Assembly (NCBI GenBank): GCA_051294375.1
Contig: JBJCIZ010000239.1
Span: forward strand, 6,033,074-6,097,073
Length of the DNA: 64,000 nt
Source: Paraspadella gotoi
Taxonomy: Eukaryota; Animalia; Chaetognatha
Direction of reading: 5' to 3'
Positions 26,695-63,893 of the stretch are shown here, piece after piece; the first letter of the stretch is position 1; each line of letters begins with the position of its first letter. The position numbers were made by a program, and so were the translations under genes. Under the pieces are notes generated by a model. It had not been told where the DNA came from and ran no database searches. It saw nothing but the letters and a program-made list of their open reading frames with translations.

Positions 26695-26746
<52 letters not shown>

Positions 26747-36505: not shown

Positions 36506-36699
36506 ATATCCTCCGCCCATCTATCCAACCCCCTCATCGACGACTACGGTCAAAACGACGCCGGGGCGCCGGGAGAGGACGGGCGTCAAGCGGCGCTTCC
36601 CGACGCCGCCGACGCCGACCTCAAGGAACGAGAGCGCCGCCTGTTGGAGAAGCATAAGATCAACGTCGTCTTGAGCGACGTCGTTCCTTTGAATAGAAG
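36506..36699 (+). CDS. GALNT: Polypeptide N-acetylgalactosaminyltransferase, stem-region exon
   Basis: Acceptor cccag|, donor AG|gtgagg. Translates ISSAHLSNPLIDDYGQNDAGAPGEDGRQAALPDAADADLKERERRLLEKHKINVVLSDVVPLNR, matching the GALNT stem pattern PGExG...N..SD.I.LNR. Ends in phase 2, compatible with the exon at 53859. Confidence 0.88.
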
Positions 36700-37789: not shown

Positions 37790-38795
37790 AGATCCCGACT
37801 CTATAACTCACTTTTTCGGTCCGTCGGTCCGCCCCTCAATATTGTCGGGCACACACTTATATCATGTCAGAACATCGAATTATGATAAATTATGCAAAAA
37901 AAATGATGTCCGTCCGTCCGTCTGTCCGTCCGTCCGTCCGTCCGTCCGTCCGTCCGTCCGTCCGTCCGTCCGTCCGTCCGTCCGTCCGTCCGTCCGTCCG
38001 TCCGTCCGTCCGTCCGTCCCACCTTAGCAAAAAACACCAATTACTCGTGATTGGATGGATGGATTTAAATGAAATTTTTTGTGAGGATAGGTAAGTGTGT
38101 GATTGAGCTGGATATGAAGTTTCGATGGAATCGTCCGAGTGGAAATGAGTTTAAATGGAAAAAACAAAAAAAATATATTCACTATTTGAACACCAATTGC
38201 TCATGAGTGGATGGGCTGATTGACCTGAATTTTGTATGTGGGTAGGAAAGTGTTGTGATTGAACAGGAAATCAAGTTTCGAGGAATAGTTTGAGTGGAAA
38301 TGAGTTTAAATGGAAAAAAACAAAAAACCTGTTTTACTAAATGATTATGCTTCTTTTTCCTTTTATATTAAATGTATCTGCAGGATGTATTAATAAATCA
38401 AATAATTAATCAGTTAATTAATCAATTAGTAAATAAATTAATCAATAATTAATTAATTAGTCAATCAATCCGTCCATCCGTCCCATCTTAGCAAAAAGCT
38501 CCAATAACTCGTGATTGGCTGGTTGGATTGGAATTAAATTTTGTGTGTGGGTAGGAAAGTGTGTGATAAAGCTGGATATAAATTTTCGATGGAATCGTGT
38601 GAGTGGAAATTAGTTTAATGGAAAAAACATAAGTCGAATTTACTAAATCTTTTTACTTATTTTAACCAATAAATAAAAGTGAGTGAAGAAGCTAGATATA
38701 AAGTTTTGACGGAATGCAAGTTGAAAAAATTATGCAAGTTGAAAAATGATGCAAGTAAAAAAATCTTAAAAGCATAAGGATCGTCGCTATTGCAT

Positions 38796-38836
<41 letters not shown>

Positions 38837-39235
38837 GAGAGAGAGAGAGAGAGTGAGAGAGAAAGAGAGAGAGTGAGAGAGAGAGAGAGAGAAGGAGACA
38901 TAAAATAAAAAAATCTTAAAAGACTCAAGATCGAGCCAGAGCCACTATCATAGAAAATTAATGAAAAAAACCGGGAAAAAACGAATGAATCATGCGATAA
39001 CGAATTATTGATGTATAGTAATTGATTGAGTAATACTAATTGATTGATGTAACAGTAATTTATTGATGTAATAGGAATTGATTATTGATTCGATGATAAT
39101 CAATTATTGATGCGATGATAGTCATTCACTGCTGTGATGATAGTCATTCAGTGATGCGATGATTGTCATTCATTGATGCGATGATTGTCATTCATTGATG
39201 CGATGATAGTCAATAAAACAAACAAATGCGTGTAT

Positions 39236-39296
<61 letters not shown>

Positions 39297-39316
39297 AAAG
39301 AGAGAGAGAGAAAGAA

Positions 39317-39379
<63 letters not shown>

Positions 39380-39831
39380 AAGAGAAATAAATCCACGAAA
39401 ATCTCGGATGAAAATATGGGATTTTGTATTGAAAAAAAGCGCGGAATAAATGGCAATAATAAAAAGTTTTTAGAAGGAAAAAAATAATCAGAATTTTTCA
39501 AAAAACAAACGATCATGCAAGAGATCGGACAGATAGGGACAGACACACACAGAGAGACAGAGAGACAGAGAGAGAGAGAGAAAAAGAGAGAGAGAGAGAG
39601 ACAGCCGCTGCAGAGAAAAGAGAAAGAAAAAGAGCGATATATAATAATTAAAAGAGAGAAAGAGAGAGAAGCTCTACAGCCCCTTTACTCGTTAAAGAAT
39701 CAGCAGTACTTATGGCGCCGCACGTAGCGTGAGCTATTCTCTACCCAAAGGACCCGGGTTCGAGCACGGTTCGCGGCATCGTTTTTACATTAGTGAACCC
39801 ACATTATATCTAAAAAATTTTTGTTAAAAAA

Positions 39832-39884
<53 letters not shown>

Positions 39885-40375
39885 AAGAAGCTGGACAGAC
39901 GCTGCAGAGCCGGAACTCGTTTTTAGACAAATCAGAAGAAGCAGTGACGGAGAAAAAGAGAGAGAGAGAGAGCGACATATAATTAAAACGTTTTTGTTTT
40001 GTAAATAAAACATAAACAAATACGAATATTGATATGAAACATGAGAATTTTAAAGATCTTGATGATTAAAAGCCATATATGAAAATTCAACTCCCTATGA
40101 TATCACATTTTCAGAAGCCATGATTGCAAAAAAGCGAGACCGAAAGCTAAACCGAATCAAAATCTAGACAGGACGGGCTTTGCCCGCCTGGCTCGATAAT
40201 AGAGGATATTTGTTTGTTTTGATAAAATGTAAACAAAACATTTAATAACTGTCCTGACTCAATTTTAAGGACATCGATGATACAAGCTGAATATAAATTT
40301 AATTAATCTATTAATTAATTAAATAATTAATTAATTATCGTAGGCAGATCCGACATTGTTTGCTCAAACTTGTTC
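37790..40375 (+). mobile_element. Non-autonomous interspersed element with (GTCC)n and ~125-bp internal subrepeats (DINE-1/Helentron-like), interrupted
   Basis: 37790-38460 and 40300-40375 match the reverse complement of 62780-63435. Contains (CCGT)n at 37908-38019. The family assignment is an inference from the GTCY tract. Confidence 0.55.
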
Positions 40376-41050
40376 TAAGCGCGGAGCGATATATCTGTGG
40401 ATTCGATCCCCGAATCTCTGAGCCACGAGTGAATAAACACTGTGAGCTCACATCTGCCTCACTTCTCAAGTTTCTTATATAAAACTTATATCAATTATTA
40501 CTGTCACTTATTTTAGACATATGAACAATCTATTCATACTATATTAACTATGCCATCTAGCGAGTTTAATTATAATTATTGTTGAGTGAAGATAATTCAC
40601 TATTTCTCCTAGTTTCAACTATACAAAATGGAGTCATCTAATTCTACCAATCGTTACCGTTAATTATTGATTTAATAATTGTTATTATGTTAAAATATCC
40701 AAATAAAATATAAAAAAAAATTTAGAGAGCCCTTCAGACATATGGCTATCGGATTTCTGAATTCGAAGTTTATTGTAAAATCACAACATATGTTAAATGC
40801 GTTTACATTGTATTTAAGTTAAGAAATCCTTTTATTTTATAGATAAAAATTGCGTCGAAAATTTGAATCTGAGAGTTTGATGTCAAAATGCTGGTTATTT
40901 GACAAAAGAAAAAAATATGCGAGCCCGGAATTTTTATCAGGAGCGTTTATATTGTTTGGTAGTCGGATTTGAACGGAAAATCTCCACTGAAAAAAAATCT
41001 TCCTCGATCTCTAAGATTAAGAACGACGTCAGCTCCTACTTTTTCGGTCC

Positions 41051-41081
41051 TCAAATGAGAAGCGCCTCAACCCGTAACGTC

Positions 41082-41112
<31 letters not shown>

Positions 41113-41208
41113 TATCGTTTCTTAATTCCACGGCGCCGTCGATCATGCAAGTTCCTTTGATAATATTTTTGCAATCCTCGCAAGTCGGGGCGCAGATGGG
41201 CGGGAGGC
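41051..41208 (-). CDS. Cys-rich gene C, terminal exon 4
   Basis: (ct)n-ag| (G)LPPICAPTCEDCKNIIKGTCMIDGAVELRNDIVVVVVVVVVATLRVEALLI*. Confidence 0.87.
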
Positions 41209-41469
41209 CTAGAGAGAGAGAGAGAGAGAGAGGCAGGCAGAATCGGGGGTACACATTGAATGGCATCAGCCTCGAATCACATCTGTAATAGGGAGGAAAG
41301 AATAAAATTTCATACAGCCCTAATTTGCACTGCCGATTTCTCCCCCCCCCCGTCAGTAATTAATCATCATTGACCATTGGCTCATTGTGTATTGACCATA
41401 ATGTTTTGGGTTCGATCCTAACCGGGCAACCTGCCCCGATGACAGATCTAAGTCAACCACCCACACTAT

Positions 41470-41790
41470 CTAATCCCATACCAATCAAATCCTATGCCAA
41501 TCAATTCAAATTACAATCAAATCCCATACCAATCAAATCCCATACAAACCAAATTCTATGCCAATCAAATCTAATTACAATTAAATCCCATTCCAATCAA
41601 ATCCCATTCCAATAAAATCCCCTGCCAATCAAATCCCTTGCCAATCAAAATCCAATTACAATCAAATCCCATCGAAATTAGAAACAAATCCCATTCCAAT
41701 TTTGATCCGATGCCAATCAAATCTAATTACAGTCAAATCCTATATTAATCAAATCCCCTGCCAATCAAATCCCCTGCCAATCACATCCCA
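41470..41790 (+). repeat. Degenerate ~16-bp tandem repeat (CCAATCAAATCCCAT) in intron 3 of gene C
   Basis: Visible recurring unit. Confidence 0.8.
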
Positions 41791-41838
41791 CGACGAATCA
41801 TAGTTATAACTCAACCCCCCCCCCTTCAAACATCTCAC

Positions 41839-42042
41839 CTTCTTCGTCATGATTCTTTCCTCCTTTGCAGCAAGTCTTAAAGGTAAAGGGCTTCCCGTTG
41901 AATTCCTTTTGCTTCGTGCAGAACATTGTCGATTTGCAATTGAAGATAGTCTCCTCGACTTCGTCGTCCTGATGAGGTTCCACGCATCTGCCTCCGGCGT
42001 TGGTGCAGATACTGCAGTCGGGGATGCACAGGTTGGGCATGG
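41839..42042 (-). CDS. Cys-rich gene C, exon 3 (204 nt, phase 1-1)
   Basis: Pyrimidine tract ctctctttcc...cag| (P)MPNLCIPDCSICTNAGGRCVEPHQDDEVEETIFNCKSTMFCTKQKEFNGKPFTFKTCCKGGKNHDEE, donor G|gtgaga. Confidence 0.9.
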
Positions 42043-43283
42043 CTGGGGGGGGAAAGAGAGCCTAGGGTGGTCGGGTGAAGATTGCCGGGGGGATGACGAT
42101 TGGTGGGTCCGGAGAAGAGCGGGAGTTTAACCTGAGCGTCTCTCTATTCAAGCTTTCTCAGTGTGAAAAAAAAAATCGTCATTTTTCATTATCTTCAACT
42201 GCAAACAAAAAGCTTGACACATTGCTTGTTTATCATAATAAAATTTTTAAAAATTACATAGCTGGCAACATATTTGACAAAGCCAGACATCATTGTGTTA
42301 AATTGTATTAATAATTTTCTTTTAAATATAACAACCTTTATACTTTATAATTCTATTATTCATCATCTATTTTAATTTTTTTTTAAATTTCGCGGAATAG
42401 CCAATTGGAAAGGGTTCATTGACTGACTTAATGATCAAATTGTTTAGGTTTCTTTACTGCCACCATTTCACAAGACATAATAGGTTATGATTATTATGTC
42501 AGTATGTCCAGATTATCTGTACCCTTTCTGCAACCCGCATTCCGAATTTTCTTTTTTCCCCTTTCAAATGTATTAAATAAAAAAAATTATTTGAGAGAAT
42601 GATCGGCGTGGGGGATGCCATTGGTAAGCCTTAGTAACCCCACTTCCCGAACAAATTTTTAAACAAGGTTTTTTTTCCATCTATTTGAGACATGACACTA
42701 ACTATTGGCGATATTATTTTTTTTATTTCTTACAAGATATTTTGCGTAATCCGAGAAACGTTTAGCGTGTCAAAAAAATATGGAAAAAAATAAGAGAAAA
42801 ACGTTTTGACAAATTTAAAAATTTATGGAGGAATCTAATATAAGCTATCTGGCATCCTAACTTGGGACAGGCTATGAAGGGTTAAGGCCTCCACCCACTT
42901 ACAGGGTAATAACCTAACATACATATTATTTAATTTTAACTGAACAAACAGTCAACTTAGAACAAGGTACATCGAGTAATGAGCATCAATTTACGAAGTG
43001 CTAACCGTTATTAAACATTATTTATTTATCATTTTTAAATGTCAATATGATCGAGAGAAAGAATTGCATACTAAAACATATATGCTGTGGTTTCGTCGCC
43101 ACGGGGTTCACACCAGCTGGTCACTTTGTCGTAAGGTCTCTCTTTTTCTCTCTCTTCTGTTATTTAACCTGCCAATAGAATGTATTATGTGCCTCTACAA
43201 TACTTTACATACTTGAATGCTCCATGAAAAAAAAAGAGGAAATCACGAATACAAGAGCTCACAACCCACATTAAATAACTCAC

Positions 43284-43496
43284 GTCTTCCTTCCATGTGA
43301 GCTCCTTTGCAACAACCCTGAAACTTGACTTTTTCTCCCGCGAATTTCGTTTGTGTTTTGCAGAATTTTGCAGACTTGCAATTCCTAACTCCCTCGATGT
43401 CTGGATCCGGGGGTTCCTCTCTCTGCGGCGGATCTTCCACGCAATTGCCAGACAATTCTTGCATGCAACGGTCGCAGTTTTCAGAGCAGACCTTTT
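43284..43496 (-). CDS. Cys-rich gene C, exon 2 (213 nt, phase 1-1)
   Basis: caaacag| (E)KVCSENCDRCMQELSGNCVEDPPQREEPPDPDIEGVRNCKSAKFCKTQTKFAGEKVKFQGCCKGAHMEGR, donor C|gtgagt. Confidence 0.88.
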
Positions 43497-43779
43497 CTGT
43501 TTGTTGGTGGGTGGGTGGAAATGATTTTACAGAGTGGCATTAAATGACTAATGGTTTGGTTCTTTTTTTGGCAGAAAAAAATGGTGAAGTTTTTTTTTTA
43601 ATTACGTTTTTTTATAGAAAAAGTCAGATCAAAATTTAAAAGTTTGGCGTCCGGCGTTTTAAAAGATGAATCATGGTAATTTTTTAGCGAGTATAAAAAT
43701 GAAATAAAATAAAGTATAAAAATACTCAGGATATCTATCTCTCTCTCTGTGACAGAGTCTGTCTGTCTGTCTCACTCAC

Positions 43780-43939
43780 CATTGGACGTGTCGCAACAGA
43801 CATCATAATTGACCATTTTGTCTTCATGATATTCCACTCCTTGACAAAACGCATTTGTCTCACAGTTATTCACCTCCTCGTAAGCTAAGACTACTTTCAA
43901 AAGCAAAGCCAAACCGAGGACGATCACGGGCGTCGCCAT
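43780..43939 (-). CDS. Cys-rich gene C, exon 1 (not in supplied ORF track)
   Basis: aaaATGg start. MATPVIVLGLALLLKVVLA-YEEVNNCETNAFCQGVEYHEDKMVNYDVCCDTSN. Phase-1 donor G|gtgagt. The 5' end is nearly identical to gene B at the DNA level. Confidence 0.88.
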
Positions 43940-44074
43940 TTTGTATTTTTGTTTATAGTTTCTTTTCTCTTAAAGCTAATTCTTTATTAGCCAAAAGTAA
44001 AAAGTAAATGAGATTTTTAGGTCGACTGCGAAATTAGAATTTTCGATGTTCACTTTTAGTATGAAGTCTTTAGA

Positions 44075-44206
44075 GTTTTTGAATTTGTGACAACGATTTA
44101 TTTTATTAGACGGACTTGTTTCGACTCTTTGGGTTCGAGTCTTCATCACCAAAGAGTCGAAACATGTCCGTCTAATAAAATAAATCGTTGTCACAAATTC
44201 AAAAAC
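44075..44206. mobile_element. 58-bp near-perfect hairpin, Penelope-like inverted fragment with hammerhead-like core
   Basis: Arms 44075-44132 and 44149-44206 (one mismatch), 16-nt loop. The minus strand reads gTGATGA-a-gactc...gagtc-GAAAC. The arm resembles the flank of the 62631 motif. Confidence 0.65.
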
Positions 44207-45996
44207 ACTTTGTTTTCTCTAAATATTAAACAACGAAAAGAAAGGATTATCACATGTAGTATGAATTCAAAACAGACGACAAACTTTGTTAAAACAAAAA
44301 AAGCAAAGCAAAGCAAAGCAAAAAATTGGATAAAATTCTTCAAAAAATGTCACATCACTTAGTTTATTTATGACGATCCTATATATACATAATATTACAT
44401 ATACTCGGTTTGATTACAAAGTTAGTCGCTATCGAATCTTAAATATTAAACACAATCGAGGCGACTTAGCGCGAGGCCTTACCTACTCAATTCAACCTTG
44501 AGGGGCTTTGTGGTCAAATATGTAGAAAACATTATGGTACATTATGGTGCGTCTTCCAAGTCACGGGGTGAAGACATCACCCGATAGTTCACGCTCAGGG
44601 CTTTGATCCTGAGATGACCACATGTCACTGGCATTTTCAAACCGACACCATCACATTTCAGAAAGACAGACCGTGAAAGGATTGAACGATGTACTCGAGA
44701 CCGGTAAATGAGTAGGAACCTATTCAAGTCATTGATGCGAAATCTAACAAAAGGCGAATTTAGTATTCATCAAAAAATCATCAAATTGTAGCAGCTCAAG
44801 TGACGATGACAACAACAACATCAAACGACCACGACGATCAAGTTCACTGCCCATTATTCGACCACCTGACCTTGGGTCAGGTTTCACCTCTCTCACTTGA
44901 ACATTGAACATTGAGCATTGTTTTTTCTCTTTTTGGTTTTTACTATTGTTATTGACTTTTCATTATGGTTTACTTTTGGATTATAACCTTTCTTGTTTCC
45001 TTAAAGAAAAATTGCCTCAATATTTTTTGCTTTAGTCAACTACAAAATCAAGAAATTACGAGCAAAACGAGGCTCGAGCTCTATTATTCGAAACGAAATG
45101 CAAAAATTGAAAAAAAAATGTTTATAGAGTAGTATAGAGGAGTAATTTACTACTATCGGTACAATGTGAACTAACAGTCATCAAAAAAAATAATAAATCA
45201 CCAATGAACAATTTTCAGCAAATGTCGTTAAAGAAATTGAACAAAGTAAAACAGAATACGTGTTGTTGTCGTCGTCGTCGTCGTCGTCTTTTTTTTTCCC
45301 GCTCACTTTTATATTTCAAAGTCATCGACCTTATTTTCCAAAAGCATCCCATTTCCGCTTCAAAATTAGATTAATTTTCAGGGTTGTTCTTCGAGTAAGT
45401 AAGGGATTAAGGTTAAAGGTTAAGGACGGGGATTAGGATTAGGATTAGGGTTAGAATTAGCGAAGAGGATTAGGTTGAGGATTGGATTTAAATGAAATTG
45501 GTAAGACCAATATAAAAAATTATTATATTATAAATTAAAATTAAAATTAAGTTTCGGAGATTATGAAATAGAGCATTATTTTTTAAGGACGCCCCATTTT
45601 ATCTTAAATTCTAAATTAAGTTAAGTTTTTTAATTAAATATTAAGTTAAGAATAGTAATTAAGATTAAGTTAAAGATTAGATTAGTAATTAATGTGAGAG
45701 GTTTTGTTTATGATTTGGGTTCATGATTTGGATTAGGGAATAGCTTTAAATGTTAGAGGTTAAGGTTAAAAATTAAGGATAAAGGTTTAGGGTTAGGGTT
45801 TAGGATTAGGTTAAGGTTTGTAATTAAGGTTAAGGATTTGGGTTTGGGATTAGTTTAATAATTTAAGAACATATTTTTTTTTATTATAATATTTTTTTTT
45901 AAATTACGATAAATGGAATAAAACTCTTGACGGAAAAAAAGCGCCAGAAATTGAATGCTTTCGGAAAATAGCGCAAATGTGTTCATCTTCAGGTCT

Positions 45997-46160
45997 TCAT
46001 AATCTCAAAGTCGTTGCTTTCAACATCTCATCGACGACGACGACGACGACAACGACGACGAGAACGACGATTCCGTTTGCCGTGGGTTTCGCGCATGCGC
46101 TGAAACATTTTCCTCCTTCCTTTACGCAGTCTTCACATTTCGGTGTGCAGATGTTTAACA
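45997..46160 (-). CDS. Cys-rich gene B, terminal exon 4
   Basis: ttccccttcatctag| (V)LNICTPKCEDCVKEGGKCFSACAKPTANGIVVLVVVVVVVVVDEMLKATTLRL*. Confidence 0.85.
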
Positions 46161-46298
46161 CTAGATGAAGGGGAATTTGGGGGGGCGGGGACTTCAGGCC
46201 TTATTTTCCTAAAATGCCCTATGTAATCTTAAATTCGGAAATGGGTTAATTTCTTTCAAGTTAAAGATTAGGTTTGAGTTTAGGGTAAGGGATCGAAG

Positions 46299-46512
46299 TT
46301 AGAGATTAGGTTAGTGATTAGAGATTGGGTTAGTGATTAAAGATTAGATTAGTGATTAGAGATTAGATTAGTGATTAGAGATTAGGTAGTGATTAGAGAT
46401 TAGGTTAGTGATTAGAGATTAAGTTAGTGATTAGAGATTAGGTTAGTGATTAGAGATTAGGTTAGTGATTAGAGATTCGGTTAGTGATTAGAGATTAGGT
46501 TAGTGATTAGGG
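46299..46512 (+). repeat. 19-bp tandem repeat (TTAGTGATTAGAGATTAGG), about 11 copies
   Basis: Near-perfect periodicity; follows a MITE-like end at ~46198. Confidence 0.9.
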
Positions 46513-47669
46513 TTAAGGATAAGAGAATTACACGTAAAAAGAAAATCACTGAGGCGCAACGCATTTGATGGACCGATCTTGGTTTAAAATATTAACAATA
46601 TGCATGATCCAATTTACAAAAAACTTAATATCAAGAATATTCCCGTCATTGTAAATAGCTTTAGCGATTTACTTACCCCCCTCCATTAGCTTTAATTTTT
46701 TTCTTCAATTTTTTTTCCATATTTGTAACTTTTGCTACCTACTATGAAGATTTGTCTCTTACTTTTTCTACTATGAGCATTTTTCCTTTACTTTCTATAG
46801 AAATTTGCTCTTCTGTCTGCACCCACTAGATCTTCACTTGCATCGCTTTACACAAAATAGCAAATTTTTGCCTGTTTTGGTCTTAATAAACCAGATGGCT
46901 CCACAAACAAAAGAGCGTTTTTAAAACAAAATAGCAATTAAATTTAGTTTTAGTATATCTTTTCTGAAACAAAAGAACAGTCCTATTAAATCTTCTTTGT
47001 ATTTTCACCCTATTCTACAAGAGGGCTTTACAAATCAGGAGGCTTTTTGTAAGACAAAGAAACATTCAAAAATTTTATCTGCACCCACTGTTTGTAATTA
47101 GGAGCAAGTTTTACAAGGTTTTACAAAAATGTAAAAAAAAGGCACATGATTTATTGCGTCGTATTTAGACATAATTTTTAAAATAAAACAAATTTTAAAA
47201 TTTAAGGGAAGATAATTTCAAAAAGTCAAAGACCCAGACGGTCGCCTTGGCGTTTCCCTCGTGGAAAGGATGAGATGAAATCCATCGAAATTACCATAAC
47301 TTTGGATAGAACTGTTGAGGATTCAAATCCTTCAATTCTTCACCCCGCACAAACTGATATTGACTATGCTATTCAAGCATATTCTATTTAAGATTCATTA
47401 CTACTTTTTCTTTTTTAATCCTCCTTACCTTCATAGGTTTTTAATCCTAAATGATGCAAGTTGAAAAAAAAATTATTAGTGCCACAATAACAGTTCAGCT
47501 TAAGCCCTTGAAAGCGATTTACATGTATTGGCGCAGCCACTGGTTATAAGAATATGACCAAAAACCTCTGGCTTTTTTTTTTCAGGCAAGAGGGCTATGG
47601 GTTAGGGCGGACAGACAGACAGACAGAAAAAAAGATTTAAAATAAAGAAAGAAAGAAAGATAGAAAAAC

Positions 47670-47888
47670 CTGCTTTGTTGACCGGATGCTTTATTCCTTT
47701 ACAACAACCGTCGAAGGTTATCGGTTGGCCGTTGTGTTCTTTCTGCGACTTGCAGAAGTCGGCCGTTTTGCAATCGAGTACAGACTCTTCCATCTGCCCT
47801 GGAGGTTTCTTATGTTCTTCTCCTTTGATGCACTTCCCGTTGTATTTATTGCAGTCGGAGCACTTCACGATGCAAATATTCGGCAACT
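47670..47888 (-). CDS. Cys-rich gene B, exon 3 (219 nt, phase 1-1)
   Basis: (K)LPNICIVKCSDCNKYNGKCIKGEEHKKPPGQMEESVLDCKTADFCKSQKEHNGQPITFDGCCKGIKHPVNKA. The acceptor follows an A-rich tract (atypical); donor G|gttttt is weak. Confidence 0.8.
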
Positions 47889-47978
47889 CTTTTTTTTTTT
47901 TATTTCATTTGTATTTTATTTTAATTTTTATTTAGTTGTTTTTTATTTTTTAATTTAATTTAATTTTTTTATTTATTT

Positions 47979-48012
<34 letters not shown>

Positions 48013-48196
48013 CACGGAAAACATGAGGAAAGATAAGGGGGGCAGGAAGGGGGGGAAGAAGATGAGAGATGAGACGTTGAAGTTGATTTCGAAGATGAAA
48101 TATACATACTGACTAAATCTTTTTCTTTTTTCTTTCTCTCTTGCTCTTTTTATTTTTACACACTCTCTCTCTTTTTCTCTGTCTTTGGCTCTCTTA

Positions 48197-48246
<50 letters not shown>

Positions 48247-48306
48247 CTCTCTCTCTCTCTCTCCCTCTCTCTCCCCCCTCTCCCCCCTGACACCAATTCA
48301 ACTCAC

Positions 48307-48519
48307 TCTCGCCTTCATACGCGGCTCCCTTGCAGCATCCCTCCAACGTGACAGGCTCCCCGTTGAGCTTCATGACACGACCCTTGCAGAACTTGCTTGA
48401 CTTGCAATTTCTGGTGGTCTCCCCGTTGGCATCCGGCGGTTCCTCTATCTCAGCCGGGTCACCCATGCACTTTCCGCCTGTCATACGACAGGCCTGGCAA
48501 CTCTTCGCGCAGGCCTTGC
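48307..48519 (-). CDS. Cys-rich gene B, exon 2 (213 nt, phase 1-1)
   Basis: ctttctatcctctctacag| (G)KACAKSCQACRMTGGKCMGDPAEIEEPPDANGETTRNCKSSKFCKGRVMKLNGEPVTLEGCCKGAAYEGE, donor A|gtgagt. Confidence 0.88.
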
Positions 48520-49380
48520 CTGTAGAGAGGATAGAAAGGTCGTTTTACGTCGTATGAAATTGGTACAACCAATATAAAATTATCCATTTATTAATTAAAT
48601 AAGCTACCATGGACAAGCTTTGATGGTTTAGGGCGTCCATCATTCTCACAAGGTAATCACAAAGCAGGTTTCTGCAAGCTTTCAATCAAAACTCTCTCAC
48701 AGTCTCGTTTATTCACTACCAGAGCACCTGGATTCCCAATCAATGAAGTATAATATTTAAAAGAATGTTTCCATTGTTTAAAGGTCCACTTCATTATATT
48801 ATATGGTACTCCGCGCTCGCATCAAATTACATGGAGCTGAATTTTATTTTAATTTATTGTATTTTAGTGTATGGAACTAGAGCCCACGAATGCTATTGAT
48901 GCACTTCAGATAAGTAGTTGATGTAGATAATTTCGACAAAATATTACCTAAGCTGTTGAAGAGACATCACATGCATAAGAGATAATACTATTATTAATAG
49001 TTTAGTTTAAAGCAATTCGTAGTAGGACCGCCTTGAAAAATGATTCGTCCATAAGATTATTATTAAGAATCGAAATATTGTCAAACAAAAATAAAAATAC
49101 AATTGTAAATCCTACTACGAATTGCTTTCGACTAAACTATTACCAAAGCTATTTATAACGATATTATTGCTCATAATGGAAAATGGTAAATGGATCATTT
49201 CTTCCGACTGTATAATTACATTGACGTTTTCTCATAACTATGATAATTATCAACATTTAAATCATCGCTTCGTGTAACCATGGTGATTGGTGTGGACGAA
49301 CAACTATTACACGCAACCTCGGTCAAATGAATTGACCTTACTTTCAACCTATGGTGGACTAAATCCACCAACCGTTCATC

Positions 49381-49530
49381 AGCGGCCATTGGTGCCGGAG
49401 GCAAGTCATTCGCCTCCCAACCCAAAGGTGGGGTCCGGTGTCTAGCCCGTGGTCGTCTGCAGTAGAGGGACGGGCGCTTCACCCGCCTGTAACACGGTGT
49501 TACAGCCTGATCCGAAGCTCAGGGACTGCT
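49381..49530 (+). mobile_element. tRNA-SINE-like element (second family)
   Basis: tRNA-like head. cccaaaggt...gatccgaagctcagggactg is shared with 53390-53492; similar head at ~39710-39780. Confidence 0.5.
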
Positions 49531-50070
49531 TATATTGAACGGTTTCTGTCACTAACACATAACAATAATTACTGTCTCTTCAAACCTTACCTTCGGTCCT
49601 TTGCTCTTTCTCTTTATGGTCAAACATTGACCTTGTAAACATCCATTGTTATGGACTTAGTATCTGAGCCTTTTGACTCTTATTGTTATTTACTTTGTTG
49701 AAGAATAAATTCATTCTTACTCTGGAACTTGTTGCGTCAACAAGGTTTTTTTAAAGTTTTGCTAAAAGGTTTTTTTTTTCATTTCACGCCAGCAGGGACT
49801 AGCATTCGGTGTCGCCCGCTTTGAATGTCTTAACTTAGGCTCCAAATAAAAAAAAAAGAGTTTCATATTTTCCAGAAACTTTATTATCGATAATTATTCA
49901 CAGGAAACCTGTAAAAACAGGGTTTCCAAAGTGGGTGGACGGATCAAGTGAGTCTTAACAGAAACTAAAAAAAAACGATTTTCAAATATCTCTCTTCCTT
50001 TGAGAATAGACTTATGACGTCACTAAAAATTTAGCCTAAAGGCCGAAACAAGTCAATGATGGTCAACGGG

Positions 50071-50157
<87 letters not shown>

Positions 50158-50158
<1 letters not shown>

Positions 50159-50320
50159 CGACCCCTTCTTGCAACAGACTTCGAAGCTTTGCCCCGATGA
50201 TCCCTCCGCGTTGTCAAGTACTACGTTCGCGCAGTAAGAGTTCGTTTCGCAATCGGTCAGCGACTCGCCGCTCGAGAGCGAGGCGAGACCCAGAACGAGG
50301 ACGATCACGGACGCCGCCAT
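50158..50320 (-). CDS. Cys-rich gene B, exon 1
   Basis: aaaATGg start. MAASVIVLVLGLASLSSG-ESLTDCETNSYCANVVLDNAEGSSGQSFEVCCKKGS. Phase-1 donor G|gtaatg. Confidence 0.87.
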
Positions 50321-50895
50321 TTTGTTCACGTCTTTTTTTTTTCTTTCTCGTTCTCCTTAGTTTCTGTAATCGTTTCGTTTGTTTAAAAACTAAGAGGGAT
50401 TTTCTTCGTCGGATTTTTTTTTAAAAATCTTTTCATTTATCGAGAGAAACTAAAATGAATTACTAAGCTGCTCGCGTATTTACTGAATTGACTCTTACAT
50501 CCTATTCGCTACACGAAAAAAAATCTAATCTCAAATTATTTAACTCAAACCGATTTAAATATTGTATTTAAATTAATGTTAAAACTGTATTATAATATTA
50601 TATTAATCTATCGCTAAATTATAAATCGTTTCCTCAAATTTATCCATTTTAAACTGATTAAAACATAAGATGTAAGAATATTTTAATCATTATCAATTTA
50701 TATAGTTATTTAATTATTTTTTCCTAATCTATTTAATTATTTACTTATTTTTTAAATTTATTTATTAATGTGTTTATTTTTTTTATTTATTAATCGTCCT
50801 AAATTAACAAACGAAATCCGAACAAAAGATCAATGAGGAAACGAGTCAATTTTTCTCCGTCGTAAATTCTTCGCTCTTAAGCTTCTTTCCCTTCA

Positions 50896-50997
50896 AGACC
50901 CAACAGGAGACCCAACAGGAGACCCAACAGGAGACCCAACAGGAGACCCAACAGGAGACCCAACAGGAGACCCAACAGGAGACCCAACAGGAGACCC
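50896..50997 (+). repeat. 12-bp perfect tandem repeat (AGACCCAACAGG) x8.5
   Basis: Directly abuts the predicted stop codon of gene A. Confidence 0.95.
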
Positions 50998-51286
50998 TAG
51001 ATTCTCCCACTTTCGGTCTTTGAACTGCGGACGGAGTTTTTCTTGGGTCTCAAGACCCTCGGGGTCTTCAGCTTTCGGGTTCGGATCTTCGGGAGTCGGC
51101 CTGCAACGGTTCGACGACGGGGGGCCGACGACGATGACGACGATGCTTGGTCCAACGACCCGACGAAGACGACGACGACGACGACGACGACGAGATTCCA
51201 GTGAAGTTCCAAGGTGGCGGCTCCGCAGCAGCCTCTCAGTTCTTGGCATTCCGCGCACGAAATAGTGCAGTGCGGCCTTTTAAAGG
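50997..51286 (-). CDS. Cys-rich gene A, exon 2 (C-half of module + hydrophobic segment + tail)
   Basis: Acceptor tttctctatttgacgtcaacag|, phase 1. (A)FKRPHCTISCAECQELRGCCGAATLELHWNLVVVVVVVVFVGSL...SGRI*. The true C-terminus after the poly-Val is uncertain. Confidence 0.75.
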
Positions 51287-51622
51287 CTGTTGACGTCAAA
51301 TAGAGAAACTTCCGGTGGTTAGAGTACAAGAATCTGTATCAATTTTTTTTTAATCTTTAATTTAGTTTTAAAATTCATGAAATTGGTACAACCAATATAA
51401 TAATTATTCATTCATTGAATAAATAAGCAATTTTGCAACTGACTTTGGACAGGCTTAGGTTGTTTAAGGCCTCCATCACCCTTAAAAGGTAATGACATAG
51501 CAGGTCAATAAATAATTCAGTTTTCAGTTTTTTCATTTTTTCCACTGTATCTTTAATTCTATCTTTTTTCTTCTTTCTTTTTTTTATTCCTTATTTCTTT
51601 TTTCCCATTTTTTCCATATCTA

Positions 51623-51856
51623 TCTGTGGATAAGGCGCTACGTGGGCTGAAGATGACTATCCGTAACTTCTATAACCCCCTCTAGCAGCCATGGAACGGG
51701 TCCCTGGGCTTGGAACCAGGCTTGAGGGTTTGGCACGCCCCAAAGGCGGTTTACGGCCGTCCTCACGCTTCCCGCAGAATAGGTACCGGGTTGAGATTGA
51801 ACCCGGGACCTCGTGGTCATGGTCCGATGGCTTTACTCCATGAGCCGCCGGGTCAC
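51623..51856 (-). mobile_element. tRNA-derived SINE-like element
   Basis: Minus-strand B-box-like aggtcccgggttcaatc. Body ggcttggaaccag...ggttta.ggccgtcctcacgc is shared with 54860-55065. Confidence 0.6.
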
Positions 51857-51936
51857 AACGGAAGTTTTCATGGTAAACCCAGGCAATGCCCGACTACATA
51901 TCTCTTTTTAATCTTTTTCTCTAATCTTTAACTTAC

Positions 51937-52123
51937 CCTTGGTCTTCATGCAGCAACATTGAAACTTTTGCCGCAACTTCTTGCCCTTGTGCTCGGTTCT
52001 GGTTTTGCAGTAGAGATTCGACTTGCAGTTGAAGATGGTTTCTCGGCCTCCGGCGACGACGACGACGACGACGACGACGAGCAAGACGAAGACCACGACG
52101 ATGAATTGGCCGGAGCGAATCAT
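51937..52123 (-). CDS. Cys-rich 8C-module gene A, exon 1 (signal peptide + N-half of module)
   Basis: MIRSGQFIVVVFVLLVVVVVVVVAG-GRETIFNCKSNLYCKTRTEHKGKKLRQKFQCCCMKTK. Phase-1 donor G|gtaagt. Confidence 0.85.
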
Positions 52124-52168
52124 AACGCGTATATTCTCGATTAATAGACGTTGCTCTGAAAAAAATTA

Positions 52169-52375
52169 GGCACTATTTTCCAAAAGCTCCCCATATCTGT
52201 CTTTTTCCCCATTTTCCCCAACTCTAATGCTAAATCCTAATATTTTATTGTAATCTTCTACCAAATACCTAACCTTAATATCCAACCTTATCTGTATCCC
52301 CAACCCTTTTTAAACCTAAAAACTAATTTAATTCTGAGTTCAGGCTAAAATAGGGCGCTTTTTAAAAATATTGCC
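52169..52375. mobile_element. MITE with ~25-bp TIR and degenerate (CCCTAA)-like interior
   Basis: ggcactattttccaaaagctcccc ... agggcgctttttaaaaatattgcc. Related ends near 408, 45330, 46198, 52537-52805, 56091 and 60189-60470. Confidence 0.6.
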
Positions 52376-53858
52376 CGAAAATTAGGTTATTAAGGATGTA
52401 TATACTTTAGAATCGATAGTATTAATTTAAAAGCAATGTTTATTACCTTTGTAACTTTTTTTGATTACCTACGAATTGGAAATCCTTTTGCTCATAAACT
52501 CCACAATCGTTCTCTCCTCAGCCTCCATAGGTTTTTGGGCTTTATTTTCCCAAAAAACCATTTTACTAAATTTTTTTTATTACAATCTATGTAAGAGGTT
52601 AGTAATTAAAGTTACGGATTAAGTTAGTGATTAAGTTATAAATTAAGAATAAATGTTTATGGTTAGTGTTCAGTATTAAGTTATGGTTCACGAATAGAAG
52701 TTAGGGAAAAGTTATAAATTAAACATATTTAGATTAATTATTTAGGTTAAAATCAAATTTCGAGATAAATTTCCGAAAATGGGCCGCTCTGGGAAAATAA
52801 TACCGGTTTGGCCGTAACAAAAAATTAATCTGAAAAACTTAATTTGTCCTACATTCCAGAAAAGTAGAATTTTGGACACTTTGTTTGGTACATACATAAA
52901 TTGTAACATGTAAGAAACCTTTTCTTCCCCCTTCTTTTATTCGGGGTTAAAAAGAATAATCAAAGTTGTTTAAATCGAACAATTTGGGTTCTTTAGTACT
53001 TAGCTATTATAATATAAAAAAAACAGAAATAAAAAAATAATCTCCAATAAACGTTCTCGCGAAATTCCGCTCTTCGTCAAAAAAACGGTAACCGATTGGA
53101 CACGGACGCTTTACGGCCCCGTCACGCGCCCGGTTTACGACGACCCCTGACCTCTTTTCGACGCGTCACGTTCAGACGCCGAGGCTGGCGTCAAATAAAC
53201 TCACGCTCCCTGGCGGCGACCGGAACGTAACCACTTAACGCTGTACGACCCACGTAACCGAAGCGTACGCACAATGACGCAAGTCTTTTATATCTACTAA
53301 AATCCAAATATTCTATAATGTGCTGGTTTAAAATTTACCAGTCGATCACGGTCGGGATTCGCGCCAGACTGGAACCCTCTTCCGTAACGACCCAAAGGTC
53401 CGGGGTTCTGGCCTGGTGACATCCTAGAACTTGTGTAGCACGGAACCCGTCCGTAGCATGGTGCCACATCTAGATCCGAAGCTCAGGGACTGTTGTTTTA
53501 TGGACACTTTATGGAAAACTAATTTTAAATATTCATTCTGTCTTTTCTAATTTTAAATCTTTTCAGTAAAACTTAATTCTGACTCGGCTCTATTCTTTTC
53601 CCCCCACGTTGATTTAAATTAATTTTTTTTGTTTCAACTTTTTTTAAAATGTATTTTTCTCTTTCCCTTTAAAAGAAAGAAAAAACCTTCAAAAATATAA
53701 GAAAACGGTACAAGCATCATAAAAATTATAATATAATATATATTCTAATATGACTATTAAAGTATTAATATTTCCCTCCACCCCTTCTTACCCCTTCTAC
53801 CTCTCCCCCCCCCAACCCCCCAACACTCTGACCGCAACACCCCTTCCACAACCCCCAG

Positions 53859-53969
53859 GGTGCCCGACTCTCGCCATCCACTCTGCGCGTCACGTGACTA
53901 CGACGAGGACCTTCCGGACGCCAGCGTAATCGTCCCCTTTCACAACGAGTGGCCCTCGGTTTTGCTCAG
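53859..53969 (+). CDS. GALNT: GALNT exon, start of GT-A catalytic domain
   Basis: cccccag|...ag|gttcgt. (R)VPDSRHPLCASRDYDEDLPDASVIVPFHNEWPSVLL(R) matches the PD.R...C...Y...LP..SVI..FHNE..S.LLR motif. Confidence 0.95.
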
Positions 53970-59348: not shown

Positions 59349-59416
59349 GACAATCTACAGCCTCATCAATCGGACGCCGTGGAAATATTTGAGGGAGATC
59401 GTGTTAGTCGACGACG
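59349..59416 (+). CDS. GALNT: GALNT exon (3' end lost in N gap)
   Basis: ttcttgcag| then (R)TIYSLINRTPWKYLREIVLVDD, matching RT.hS...R.P...L.EIILVDD. Runs into Ns at 59417. Confidence 0.93.
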
Positions 59417-59437
59417 NNNNNNNNNNNNNNNNNNNNN

Positions 59438-59470
<33 letters not shown>

Positions 59471-59991
59471 CTCTCAAAAGGGGCGGATAGCCTTCGTCGG
59501 CACCAGAGGCGGGCAGAAGGGGCAAAGGAATAAAGATCCCCAAGGGAACGATTAAATTTGGCTCCAAGTTTCGGTCATAACCCGGAATCCTAAACCTTCT
59601 TTTCTTTTCCTTTCGGGTTTTGCAGCCAAAAACGTTTTCCGTGTTACATAAAGACAGACAGTTGAAGTCTTGTTCAATTTTTTTATTTCTTACGGGATAG
59701 TCTCTCGGTTGTTTGATGCCCTTTTATTATTGCATTTGTATTTTTGCCGTTAAGAAGTATCTTATTTGATCAAGTATTTTAGACGTAACTTGCTGATTAG
59801 TCAGTCCTTATGACTGTTCCTTACCCAAAGGTATAAAACAGAAGTCCTTACCTAAAACTACGAGGATACGTCGGTTTTATGGTTAAGTTTAAAGTTAATC
59901 TTTTTAATAATCTATAATCTCTCTCTCACACACACGCACTCACTCTCTCTCTCTCTCACTCTCTCCTCCATTTATCCCTTTCTCTATCCAG

Positions 59992-60169
59992 CCTCCCTGG
60001 GCGCCTCTTTCGACGACTACCTCCGAACCCACTTCCCCCAAGGGCTCGTCCGCCTTCTCCGCCTCCGAAGGCGCATCGGCCTCATCAAAGCAAGAAACGA
60101 AGGATGGAGGCAGTCTGAAGGGCGGGTGGTGGTGTTCCTGGACAGTCACATGGAGGTCAATTACGACTG
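59992..60169 (+). CDS. GALNT: GALNT exon containing the DxH metal-binding motif
   Basis: tatccag|...tg|gtgagg. SLGASFDDYLRTHFPQGLVRLLRLRRRIGLIKARNEGWRQSEGRVVVFLDSHMEVNYD(W) contains GLIxAR and FLDSH.E. Confidence 0.96.
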
Positions 60170-60558
60170 GTGAGGAGAGAGGAGTTTAGGCTCTCTTTTC
60201 CAAAAGCACCCCCTTACCGTTCCTCAATCTGGGCCTAATTTATAACTCCATTATTTTATTCGAATGAATTATCAAACTAATAACCCAATTGCGAATCCTA
60301 AATTCTAACAGTTAATCCATCATCTTTAACCATAACCCTTAACCCTAATCTCTAATCCTAATCTTTAACCGCATCACTATTCTAATCCATAATCTTAATC
60401 CTTAATCTTCTATCCTAAACTATTAACTTCTGAAGAGGAAACGGTGTGGGGGGGGCTTTTGGGAAAACCAAAAATAATCATCTGTAATTTTCCTTCATTT
60501 TCTAAACGATGTTCATTTGTCTTTCCAACACTCAGATTTATTTTTTTTTTACTGTCAG

Positions 60559-60684
60559 GCTTCGCCCTCTATTGCAAGAAATCCGCAACGATCCCCACGC
60601 GGTCGCGATGGCGCAGTTGGACTACGTCGATCGAGTCACGTTCTCCTACGACGGAACCGGAAGCGATGGAGCGCCGCTTGCCAG
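60559..60684 (+). CDS. GALNT: GALNT exon
   Basis: ttttactgtcag|...ag|gtaccg. (W)LRPLLQEIRNDPHAVAMAQLDYVDRVTFSYDGTGSDGAPLA(R) matches WL.PLL..I......V...ID.I...TF.Y. Confidence 0.92.
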
Positions 60685-61416
60685 GTACCGTCTATCTTTC
60701 TGTCCGGTTGTCGGTCATTCTGTCTAGCTATCTATCTTTCGGTCTGTTTTTTGACTGGCTGTCGTTCTGTCTGTTTTTTCACTGGCTGTCTCTCTGTCTG
60801 GCTGTCTGACTTTCGGTCTGGCTGTCTATCTTTCTGTCTAATTTTTGTCTGGCTTTTGTTCTGTCTGTCCATCTGTCAGGCTGTCTATCTTTTTGTCTGG
60901 ATGTCTGCCTGTCTTTCTGTCTATCGTTCTTATGGCCGTCTATCTTTTTTTCCGATTGTCTTACTGTCTGCATTTTCATTCTTTCAGTCTCTCTCTCGCT
61001 TTGGTTGTATTTCTGTCTATTTGTCTATTTGTTCTTCCTTTCAATATTGTCTGTCTGTCTTGTCTTTTTTATCTTTCTCCCATTTTATCTTTATTTATGT
61101 TAATTTATCCGAGTATCTTTGTGTGTCTGTATGACTGTGTACATTTGTCAGAGTACACTATACAATGTAAATATATATATATATATATANNNNNNNNNNC
61201 ATTATACAGATTATTTTCGTCTTTCTGTACGTTTGTCTGTCTTGGTCGTTTTTAGTTTCTCTTTTTATTTCGTTATTTTCAATTAATTAAAATAAAAATT
61301 TTCTTAAGATATCATGAAAATTTGAAACAAAATTCTTGTAAAAAATAACTACATGTACGACATTATATATTTATATTATTAATATTATTATTATTAAATT
61401 ACATTATTATTAACAG

Positions 61417-61506
61417 ATTCGGGTTCGATTGGCCGCTCAACTTTTTTGATCTTTCCTTTCGCAAGGATCAACTGAAGAAACAAAAGACGCCAGTCGATTC
61501 TTTACC
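61417..61506 (+). CDS. GALNT: GALNT exon
   Basis: taacag|...cc|gtaaga. (R)FGFDWPLNFFDLSFRKDQLKKQKTPVDSL(P) matches G.F.W.L.F. Confidence 0.9.
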
Positions 61507-61643
61507 GTAAGATGATGATGATGATGATGATGACGATGATGATGATAAAGATGACGAGGTTGAGGAATGAGGAATGAGGATGACTATGACTCGATAGAGC
61601 AACAGTCTCTTTCTCTCCCCCCCCCCACACACATCTACAACAG

Positions 61644-61762
61644 CGGGGCCGTGATGGTGGGGTCGGCCTTCGCCATCAACTCTTCCTACTTCGGTCATCT
61701 CGGCGCCTACGACGAAGGGATGGATATCTGGGGCGGGGAGAGACCTAGAGATGTCATTTCAG
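61644..61762 (+). CDS. GALNT: GALNT exon with Gal/GalNAc-T motif (apparent 1-nt frameshift)
   Basis: caacag| GAVMVGSAFAINSSYFGHLGAYDEGMDIWGGE, then gag-agac-cta-gag-atg-tca-ttt. Removing one base restores WGGENLEMSF. Donor ag|gtcagt. Confidence 0.92.
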
Positions 61763-62630
61763 GTCAGTTGAAAATTGGGATTTTTTGGGGGGTTTTTATT
61801 TGGGGGGGGGGAATCGGATAGAAATGGGATGGAATGGGAAAGAAAAATAAAATACGAAATTGGGGTAATTGAAAAATGGGATTTTTGAAATTTAAAATTG
61901 GAAAGGTTTAAATTCAACATTGGAAATATAAAAAAGGAGTTAATTTAAATTTTAATTTGCGATATATTTCTCTAGTTTCTACTCTTCGCGAAATTTATGA
62001 TTTTTCCCTCTATTTCCTCACGCCTTCAATACCCCTTCTTCCGTCGCGACTTGATTTTTCGGCTAAACTTGACTAAACTATTGTCCGGTTAGATTATGTA
62101 TACGTAATTCTTTGAAATAGGAAACACCAATCCGAGTGATTATTGAATTATAATGACTGTATACATTATGAAACCAGAGACCAAAAGAGGCCTTGTAAAA
62201 ATGTCATCATGCATAGTTCCGGAATACATGCAACTGATGGTAATCCGATTAGGTGAAACGAAGTTTTTTAAACAGGATTGTAGTGGAACGTAAAGTAACA
62301 AAAAATAGTTAATTAGTTATTACTTAGGAACGGATAAGAGAAAAAAAGCTTACAAAAAATAATAAAGTTTACAAAAAGCCAGATTTTTAAAGCCTGAATC
62401 CGAAAAAACTTTGCTCTTGAAATAAAAATCCCTTCACAGCTTCTGAAATTTTTTTTTCTATGGTACTACATCATGCAAACTAGATTTTAGGACAAATTAT
62501 AAATTCGAAAATTGTCTAGAAAATATTACTAGTTTTGCATCATGCATAATGGTTTCTGATACTAGTATTTTTGTTTGTTTGTTAACTTTAAAGGAAAATA
62601 ATTCAGTTCAACAACGATTTATTTACAAGG

Positions 62631-63736: not shown

Positions 63737-63893
63737 ATGTTTTCCCTGCCTTTTCTGGTTCTATTTCTGATGGCGTCTGTATCTGCCGAAGAGGAGTCGG
63801 TCACTAATTGCAAGTCGAACATGTTTTGTACCAAAGTCAAAGAATTAGAAGGCCAGCCCATATCTTTAAGCACTTGTTGCCAAAACATAAATG
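63737..63893 (+). CDS. Cys-rich gene D, exon 1 (remainder beyond window)
   Basis: MFSLPFLVLFLMASVSA-EEESVTNCKSNMFCTKVKELEGQPISLSTCCQNIN. Phase-1 donor G|gtatgt. Same C-x5-C-x15-CC half-module. Confidence 0.87.

Follow-up and report, generated by a model that had tools for sequence, protein, structure and literature searches.

Half-offset exons in a cluster of eight-cysteine module genes of Paraspadella gotoi: probable duplication of a module carrying a mid-module phase-1 intron

In this work, we describe a small gene cluster found in a stretch of 64,000 nucleotides, here called the window, of the genome of the chaetognath Paraspadella gotoi. Three of its genes, A, B and C, are best read as complete and separate units, encoding one, three and three eight-cysteine modules, respectively, with exons offset by half a module; this offset would result from duplication of a module already containing a phase-1 intron near its middle. 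We give this reading a probability of roughly 0.7. For each gene, collinear splicing of its own exons is most likely the main form, and the order C1-C2-C3 was indeed observed in one run.

Organization of the locus

Genes A, B and C lie antisense within one 17-kb intron of a GALNT-like (sugar-transferase) host gene, at short distances from each other: about 680 nt separate the stop of A from the start of B, and about 2 kb lie between B and C. Each of them has its own start, hydrophobic leader, hydrophobic tail and stop, followed by AATAAA 110-220 nt past the stop. Gene D is found on the opposite strand, with exon 1 alone inside the window. A profile search of the 64-kb window found no additional exon of the A-D family, and an Rfam scan of positions 36000-64000 gave 0 matches. 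Features are listed in Table 1.

Table 1. Exons of the A-D family and of the host gene, in window coordinates
Feature	Position	Strand	Content and observations
A exon 1, coding part	51937..52123	-	Hydrophobic leader and N-half, 5 Cys (one extra); phase-1 donor
A exon 2	50997..51286	-	C-half with an additional Cys, 5 in all; hydrophobic poly-Val stretch; basic tail of ~50 residues; stop
B exon 1	50158..50320	-	Predicted signal peptide and N-half; phase-1 donor
B2, internal exon, 213 nt	48307..48519	-	C-half, 20-residue linker, N-half
B3, internal exon, 219 nt	47670..47888	-	A-rich acceptor, weak donor
B4, last exon, coding part	45997..46160	-	C-half and hydrophobic tail stopping 7 residues before the stop; GPI-signal-like
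C exon 1	43780..43939	-	Predicted signal peptide and N-half; contig joint to C2 (run X1)
C2, internal exon, 213 nt	43284..43496	-	Contig joints match at both ends (run X1)
C3, internal exon, 204 nt	41839..42042	-	Joined to C2 in run X1; contig ends flush at the C3 donor
C4, last exon, coding part	41051..41208	-	C-half and hydrophobic tail stopping 4 residues before the stop; GPI-signal-like
D exon 1	63737..63893	+	Predicted signal peptide and N-half; phase-1 donor
Host GALNT-like exon	36506..36699	+	Donor opens the 17-kb intron containing A, B and C
Next host GALNT-like exon	53859..53969	+	Closes the 17-kb intron
Five more host GALNT-like exons	59349..61762	+	D1 lies in the intron after these exons

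Cysteine module and predicted proteins

The module contains eight cysteines, including one double Cys. Its N-half is spaced C-x5-C-x15-CC and its C-half C-x3-C-x2-C-x5-7-C, with 7-14 residues between the CC and the C-x3-C-x2-C group. Gene A, composed of a single N-half and a single C-half, features one extra Cys in each, so that its module contains ten. The linkers inside the internal exons, 15-20 residues long, consist for 37-60% of P, D and E. In gene A, which lacks internal exons, pairing of the two halves is possible only across the intron; in all three genes the folding unit would span the intron.

Signal-peptide and GPI-signal calls were made on hydropathy alone; on this basis A, B and C likely encode secreted, membrane-anchored cell-surface proteins, those of B and C being most likely GPI-anchored. 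For the tail of A, about 50 residues long, a membrane-spanning form appears a better fit than a GPI anchor. Judging from sequence, the products are most likely small disulfide-bonded binding modules exposed at the cell surface.

Intron position and phase

The seven introns of A (650 nt), B (1638, 418 and 1509 nt) and C (283, 1241 and 630 nt) are all GT-AG and phase 1, and the D1 donor, after position 63893, is also in phase 1. The donor follows the CC by 4 codons in A1, B1, C1 and D1, and by 8, 10, 8 and 9 codons in B2, B3, C2 and C3, respectively. In run X1, contigs cross the joints C1-C2 and C2-C3 precisely at the predicted bases, the remaining 5 of the 7 junctions being predictions. The weakest splice sites are those of B3, with pyrimidines making up 10% of the acceptor tract and a GTTTTT donor; the reading frame was used in part to assign the phase of this exon. 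In the host gene, by comparison, 5 of the 6 placed donors are in phase 2.

These results bear out, at every site placed, what the sequence-only reading had reported: phase-1 introns in A-C, and a phase-1 donor in D, 4-10 codons past the CC, internal exons of 213, 219, 213 and 204 nt, all multiples of 3, and a strand and phase common to A, B and C. Eight donors, all in phase 1 and all 4-10 codons past the same CC, point to one homologous site: as the introns would be copies of one ancestral intron, the phase-1 pattern represents one event, not eight. Similarly, the divisibility by 3 of the internal exons is an arithmetic consequence of equal flanking phases.

Origin of the half-offset exons

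The half-offset arrangement may be explained by tandem duplication of a two-exon, one-module gene similar to A, with breakpoints within the coding sequence. With such breakpoints, the last exon's 5' part and the first exon's 3' part would become joined, producing a symmetric exon made of a C-half and an N-half, and later copies of this exon would inherit both the position and the phase of the intron. A second duplication would lead to two internal exons, and the resulting four-exon gene would then have been copied as a whole, giving rise to B and C.

This last step is deduced from exon-by-exon kinship. B1 groups with C1 (support 84), and B2 and C2 are split from B3 and C3 with support of 92-95 for whole exons, 77-91 for C-halves and 76-82 for N-halves, the latter in a tree from which B1 is absent. 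Among the last exons B4 and C4 are the closest, at 49% versus 32-40%, and the loops across the introns, of 7, 13 and 14 residues, are the same in B and in C. The half trees are poorly resolved overall, many supports being in the range 27-70. B and C thus look, by sequence, like whole-gene duplicates, matched exon by exon, both halves agreeing. Comparison of trees for N-halves and for C-halves had been proposed as a check: for the internal exons the two trees agree, both separating B2 and C2 from B3 and C3.

Splicing of the three genes

The RNA data are contigs of a single run, X1, only probably RNA, which cover gene C and B4 only. Contigs drop rare forms; 15 of the 18 X1 joints are listed, and there are 274 loose ends besides. 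In the runs X2 and X3, matches were mainly to simple repeats. The C1-C2 joint is bridged with 139 letters on the short side at depth 88, the C2-C3 joint with 30 letters at depth 70, and no contig break is seen at the acceptors of C2 and C3. Both exons being joined in one contig, C2 and C3 are not mutually exclusive.

Exon skipping is the likeliest of the alternatives. All of the collinear joins possible in the locus, 45 out of 45, are in frame and Cys-complete, those produced by skipping included. As in progranulin, a module hybrid but complete would be left when an internal exon is skipped, which would be a mere by-product of the symmetry of these exons. Regulated, functional skipping might be common, B and C then giving also products of one or two modules, hybrid ones among them. 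For progranulin, according to a passage in S3 Text of PMC4527844, hybrid modules formed by skipping of internal (cn) exons were proposed in 1992, and hybrid granulin transcripts have been reported. The very weak B3 sites would favour such an event, as would the X1 contigs whose ends coincide with the donors of C2 and C3. The break at the C2 donor, however, is explained equally well by an unspliced intron and by a C2-C4 skip, pieces of introns 2 and 3 of C being covered at depth 5-6. At the C3 donor, the contig end is flush, even though intron 3 and exon C4 both start with G, and could reflect a third splice partner. C4 itself is thinly covered (bin depth 3), simple repeats there having been skipped, and no C3-C4 joint is present among the 15 of 18 listed; this was not counted as evidence. 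Skipped and cross-gene joints, sought as the sequence-only reading had suggested, are likewise missing among these 15 joints, which concern gene C and B4 only, and the depth of C2-C3 is 70 against 88 for C1-C2. We consider common, regulated skipping unlikely. What had been claimed from the sequence stands in part: exon duplication explains the number of modules and the joins preserve frame and cysteines, whereas a combinatorial system is unsupported. The outcome that was to refute the sequence-only reading, only collinear isoforms along with congruent half trees, is largely what was seen, in contigs of one run over C and B4.

Searches for relatives and folds

The module has no credible relative in the searched libraries, and appears to be an undescribed orphan family. 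For the four internal exons, homologs were found neither among 398 longer candidates nor among 11 candidates of similar length; a metagenome scan gave 198 pattern matches, none of which was confirmed, and 50 GALNT-related metagenome loci (28-55% identity) contained no exon of the A-D family, the best E being 0.17. HMMER over 1.84 billion representatives returned a single match, P0002, which was rejected: this protein has repeats and an N-terminus of the cell-wall type, and shares the short C-x5-C word only, without CC doublet and C-half. ESM Atlas had no usable match for C3 or B2, NCBIfam matched 0 of 4, and PDB sequences gave no match below E 0.2. A likeness of the module to beta-defensin, ShK and furin-like motifs was also weighed; Pfam gave no match to them in the nine single-exon pieces, and the idea was dropped. 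No description of the A-D family, or of a similar cluster inside a GALNT intron, was found among the papers listed by the literature searches. Since animal genomes are sparse in the searched libraries, blank searches are no proof of novelty; the family nevertheless seems undescribed there, and merits annotation.

Models and fold searches were run on exon products, not on spliced modules. The B2 product was modelled at pLDDT 54.5, with no Foldseek match. AlphaFold models of the C3 product featured one compact unit in 1 case out of 5 (pLDDT 78.5, the others 50-53), with two helices, the linker being its low-confidence segment. With this model Foldseek found nothing at E 0.001, defensins appearing only at E 6.7-9.4, and among 48,161 chains VIA reached a Z of 2.0 at best. 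No three-finger chain was listed in the searches with either model. Complex prediction of the two halves of A scored 0.02 and was not counted as evidence.

The compact C3 model might suggest that each internal exon of B and C is a folding unit by itself, a phase 1-1 exon corresponding to one domain, perhaps of a reduced Ly6/uPAR-type fold, and that the two ends carry half-units. A weak Pfam match points the same way: in one of the nine single-exon pieces searched, B2, residues 2-64 match PLA2_inh at E 0.088, scoring 13.9 bits where the cut-off is 22. In gene A, however, the halves, both of which gained a Cys, must pair across the intron; the exon would enclose a linker rich in P, D and E, the B2 model is poor, and two helices do not fit a three-finger fold. 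This interpretation is thus improbable, and a module split by its intron remains our preferred one.

Joins between genes

It has also been considered that half-offset exons serve a regulated repertoire, in which skipping in B and C and read-through from A and B would place up to 45 hybrid-module chains on the cell surface. A new protein family would then act as a compact diversifier for recognition or immunity, having its first trace in the branch at the C3 donor. We regard this as very improbable.

The sequence-only reading had loosely compared the locus to clustered protocadherins or Dscam, any first exon being in principle able to join any downstream internal or terminal exon. In such a locus, transcripts from the A, B or C promoter would run into the downstream genes, and be spliced to their internal or last exons. 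The common strand and phase, the Cys-complete joins, the short gaps and the flush contig end at the C3 donor are compatible with such a system, as is the contig cover seen in places between B and C, of depth 17, 9 and 2; this cover, being unstranded, may correspond to 3' UTR, host-intron pre-mRNA or DNA. Only three units are present, with no shared constant exon, and a separate last exon, stop and AATAAA belong to each gene. If a second upstream partner were abundant, contigs should break at the acceptors of C2 and C3, yet they continue through both. The 400 nt upstream of each ATG have in common AT-rich words of 10-11 nt and nothing longer, so that no shared upstream element is seen, although 5' non-coding exons may exist. 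Self-comparison of the 7 introns and 2 gaps showed no docking- or selector-type pairing, the matches being an AT-rich one of 16 nt, hairpins of local extent and dispersed repeats; short selectors might escape such a search. With C2 and C3 in one contig and concordant half trees for the internal exons, a combinatorial locus of this kind is the least probable of the readings, and the comparison is not supported.

If cross-gene splicing or regulated skipping were true, the locus would be a very compact case of surface-protein diversification in an animal, and the idea of hybrid modules put forward in 1992 could easily be tested on it.

Comparison with known systems

Ly6/uPAR proteins contain one or three small Cys-rich domains, with phase-1 introns inside the domains, a signal peptide and a GPI tail; their 8-10 cysteines end in CC-x4-CN, and the three-finger fold is all-beta. 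The A-C set is similar in the number of its small Cys-rich domains, one or three, in its phase-1 introns inside the modules, in its predicted signal peptides and, for B and C, in the GPI-like appearance of the predicted tails. In contrast, the order of cysteines is different, the modules lack the terminal CC-x4-CN, and the sole PLA2_inh match is far below the family cut-off. In Dscam1, alternative exons encoding part of a domain can yield chimeric domains; unlike in the Drosophila gene, no array of alternatives for one position is found here, and a single contig includes both C2 and C3. The sDscam genes of chelicerates and the clustered protocadherins of vertebrates feature tens of 5' variable cassettes, each with its own promoter, spliced to constant exons that they share (PMC4835542). 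Tandem, same-strand surface-protein units, in which loss or gain of an internal exon keeps the frame, are common to these clusters and to ours, which differs in containing three complete genes, each ending in a last exon and stop of its own, and in lacking a constant region.

The closest likeness is to progranulin. Granulins are defined by a 12-cysteine motif with four double Cys, and in progranulin genes the sn exon encodes the signal and an N-half, the cn exon a C-half, a Cys-free linker and an N-half, and the c exon a C-half; paralogs vary in cn number, from sn-cn-c in tilapia to sn-cn-cn and further in coelacanth (PMC4527844). The same layout is found here, as sn-c in A and sn-cn-cn-c in B and C. 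The progranulin intron lies four residues past a double Cys, as in A1, B1, C1 and D1 (8-10 in our internal exons), and C-x5-C-x15-CC coincides with the granulin N-half minus its first double Cys. The modules themselves are different: 12 cysteines against 8 (10 in A), four double Cys against one, and a C-half with two double and two single Cys against C-x3-C-x2-C-x5-7-C; no Granulin match was found by Pfam in the nine single-exon pieces. The mid-module intron is in phase 0 at three junctions of one progranulin gene and in phase 1 in A-D, the A-C proteins have a hydrophobic C-terminal tail, and the C3 model contains helices, whereas granulin is a stack of beta-hairpins. The cluster thus provides an independent case of the progranulin-type design in another module, with 8 cysteines, phase-1 introns and a likely membrane anchor, suggesting that one mid-module intron and duplication suffice to produce it: the A-C family is an orphan module with an already known sn-cn-c exon design.

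Gene models and genomic setting

The window comes from an animal genome; it contains spliceosomal introns and numerous microsatellites, and its GC content is about 35%. A profile built from four internal exons (B2, B3, C2 and C3) and searched across the whole window in six frames recovered ten family exons at E <= 0.011; the last exon of A, A2, scored E 3.3 and was identified instead from its Cys pattern. The proteins of the neighbouring Cys-rich genes A, B and C open with a hydrophobic leader and carry a hydrophobic stretch near the C-terminus, with 7 (B), 4 (C) and 50 (A) residues from this tail to the stop. The repeat unit is C-x5-C-x15-18-CC, 7-14 residues, C-x3-C-x2-C-x5-7-C.

All three genes lie in antisense orientation inside a single intron of a GALNT-like host gene, a position absent from the sequence-only reading. 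Host exons were mapped with P0001, a protein with Pfam PF00535 and PF00652, 74% identical to one of them. D1, the first exon of D, lies within a later host intron, on the host's strand. The frameshift in one host exon reflects either a mistake in the assembly or damage to the host gene.

With exon-sized queries, no credible relatives of the A-C family were found by word-indexed or full HMMER search of libraries thin in animal proteins, nor in the similarly animal-poor Atlas, NCBIfam, PDB sequences and fold searches; the sole full-HMMER match was rejected as a relative. Given such queries and libraries, "orphan" means not found in the libraries searched. New here are the protein family and its nested position in the GALNT-like intron.

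Features of the window and their coordinates
Feature	Strand	Positions	Description
Gene A	-		2 coding exons, 158 aa, complete
Gene B	-		4 exons, 252 aa, complete
Gene C	-		4 exons, 244 aa, complete
Gene D	+	from 63737	first exon only in window
GALNT-like host gene	+	36,500-61,760	seven exons matched by P0001
Host intron with A, B, C		36,700-53,858	17 kb, between exons matching P0001 residues 93 and 96
Host intron with D1		61763-64000	
Host exon		61644-61762	one-base frameshift ~61741, inside conserved GGE-x-LEMSF motif
B3 donor	-	47662-47669	GTTTTT
A-rich tract	-	47889-48012	~120 nt, upstream of B3 acceptor
Splice acceptor	-	52156	good; 33 nt ahead of A ATG
GTC microsatellites		52054-52101 (A leader); 51161-51193 (A tail), 46032-46070 (B tail), 41083-41112 (C tail)	encode hydrophobic poly-Val
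12-nt tandem repeat		50896-50997	perfect, 8.5 copies, starting directly at A stop codon
Dispersed repeat		51377-51505, 48554-48669, 33637-33752, 32115-32187	~130 nt; near 3' end of intron 1 in A and B, also in C intron 2; some copies outside cluster
Palindrome		44072-44209	139 nt, near-perfect (91%), ~130 nt upstream of C ATG
Inverted element		38007-38458, 62845-63299	460 nt, 87% identical, in two separate host introns; internal period ~155 nt
Low-GC segment		32001-34000	2 kb, 20% GC vs 35% background
Open frame	-	26181-26753	long poly-Asp runs; possibly contains another gene's exon
Direct duplication		2606-6577, 9500-13382	4 kb, 90% identity

Introns and the module

Phase 1 holds throughout, as the sequence-only reading had it: all seven A-C introns are GT-AG and phase 1, and the D donor is likewise phase 1. 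Within the 4-10 codons claimed, each of the four first exons has its donor 4 codons past the double Cys (CC), and the distance is 8-10 for the internal exons, whose lengths (213, 219, 213 and 204 nt) also stand. This pattern of phase and position is one event, the sites being homologous, and the internal lengths are divisible by three because the flanking phases are equal. Equal-phase runs are not rare even without homology; five of six placeable host donors are phase 2. B3, whose acceptor has no pyrimidine tract, is the least secure exon and would be the best candidate for skipping. The acceptor ahead of A suggests a further-upstream non-coding first exon.

The introns, claimed to cut the eight-Cys module in its middle, probably do so; we infer the module frame, since folds and scans used exon products rather than spliced modules. 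Within internal exons, N-half and C-half are separated by a linker of 15-20 residues (37-60% Pro/Asp/Glu), which in the C3 exon model (residues 21-30) has mean pLDDT 64 vs about 85 on both sides. A contains a single N-half and a single C-half, each with one extra Cys (10 Cys in total); these may hint at pairing across the intron, weakly so because B4 too has a fifth Cys, close to the tail. Against the frame, the C3 exon product folded as one unit in one of five model runs, and a weak match to Pfam PLA2_inh extends across B2 (E 0.088).

Duplication history

Judged by sequence, B and C match exon for exon. A tree of the four internal exons, B1 being absent, separated B2+C2 from B3+C3 with support of 92-95 for whole exons, 76-82 for N-halves and 77-91 for C-halves; a separate tree grouped B1 with C1 (support 84). 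B4 and C4 are 49% identical, as against 32-40% to A2, and B and C alike have intron-spanning loops of 7, 13 and 14 residues. An internal exon duplication would have come first, followed by the whole-gene duplication giving B and C, an order under which N-half and C-half agreement is expected. The conflict between half-trees sought on behalf of the combinatorial proposal did not appear, the halves being concordant wherever signal exists; trees of all halves are otherwise poorly supported (27-70), so that older shuffling is possible.

Splicing and the combinatorial proposal

In principle, free in-frame joining was borne out, all 45 possible collinear joins being in frame and Cys-complete, which is the outcome of any phase-symmetric tandem family. 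The proposed combinatorial system like protocadherins or Dscam is unsupported: the three genes have no constant exon in common, and each carries its own AATAAA, 110-220 nt past the stop. Sequence comparison found no upstream element shared by A, B and C, and no docking-type pairing, only dispersed repeats and local hairpins. The palindrome near C looks like a miniature inverted-repeat element.

Contigs of one run, X1, presumed to be RNA, were compared with exons C1-C4 and B4. C1-C2 are joined at the predicted bases in one contig (depth 88) and C2-C3 in a second (depth 70); these contigs and one small intron piece explain the depth of three bins. None of the 15 joints shown, out of 18, skips an exon or links two genes. 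Each contig continues without a break through its acceptor, which would argue against an abundant second upstream partner for C2 or C3, contigs being prone to drop rare forms. Both stop exactly at a donor (C2 and C3, respectively). The end at the C2 donor may mark a skip to C4 or unspliced intron, pieces of C introns having a depth of 5-6. Since the C3-side intron and C4 share an initial G, a simple branch at the C3 donor should end one base further on; the flush end could reflect a third partner, an allele or paralog merge, or truncation by the tool at a repeat close by, and is the sole result leaning toward the sequence-only reading. For a regulated cross-gene repertoire from A, B and C we estimate a probability of about 0.06.

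Comparison with known systems

The half-offset exon mechanism is ordinary and has precedent. Half-domain exons occur in Dscam1. In sDscam and protocadherins, according to the passages cited from PMC4835542, variable 5' cassettes are spliced onto constant exons, which those systems require and A, B and C lack. Granulin itself was rejected as the identity of the family, since Cys count and intron phase disagree; its N-half minus the first double Cys has the same spacing as the A-C N-half, and remote descent from it is improbable. Progranulin genes, in the passages cited from PMC4527844, have sn, cn and c exons, exactly the design found here; their intron lies four residues past a double Cys, and their paralogs include sn-cn-c and sn-cn-cn-...-c. 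S3 Text of the same source credits Bhandari and Bateman 1992 with cn-exon skipping that yields a hybrid module, and Plowman 1992 with the observation of hybrid-module transcripts.
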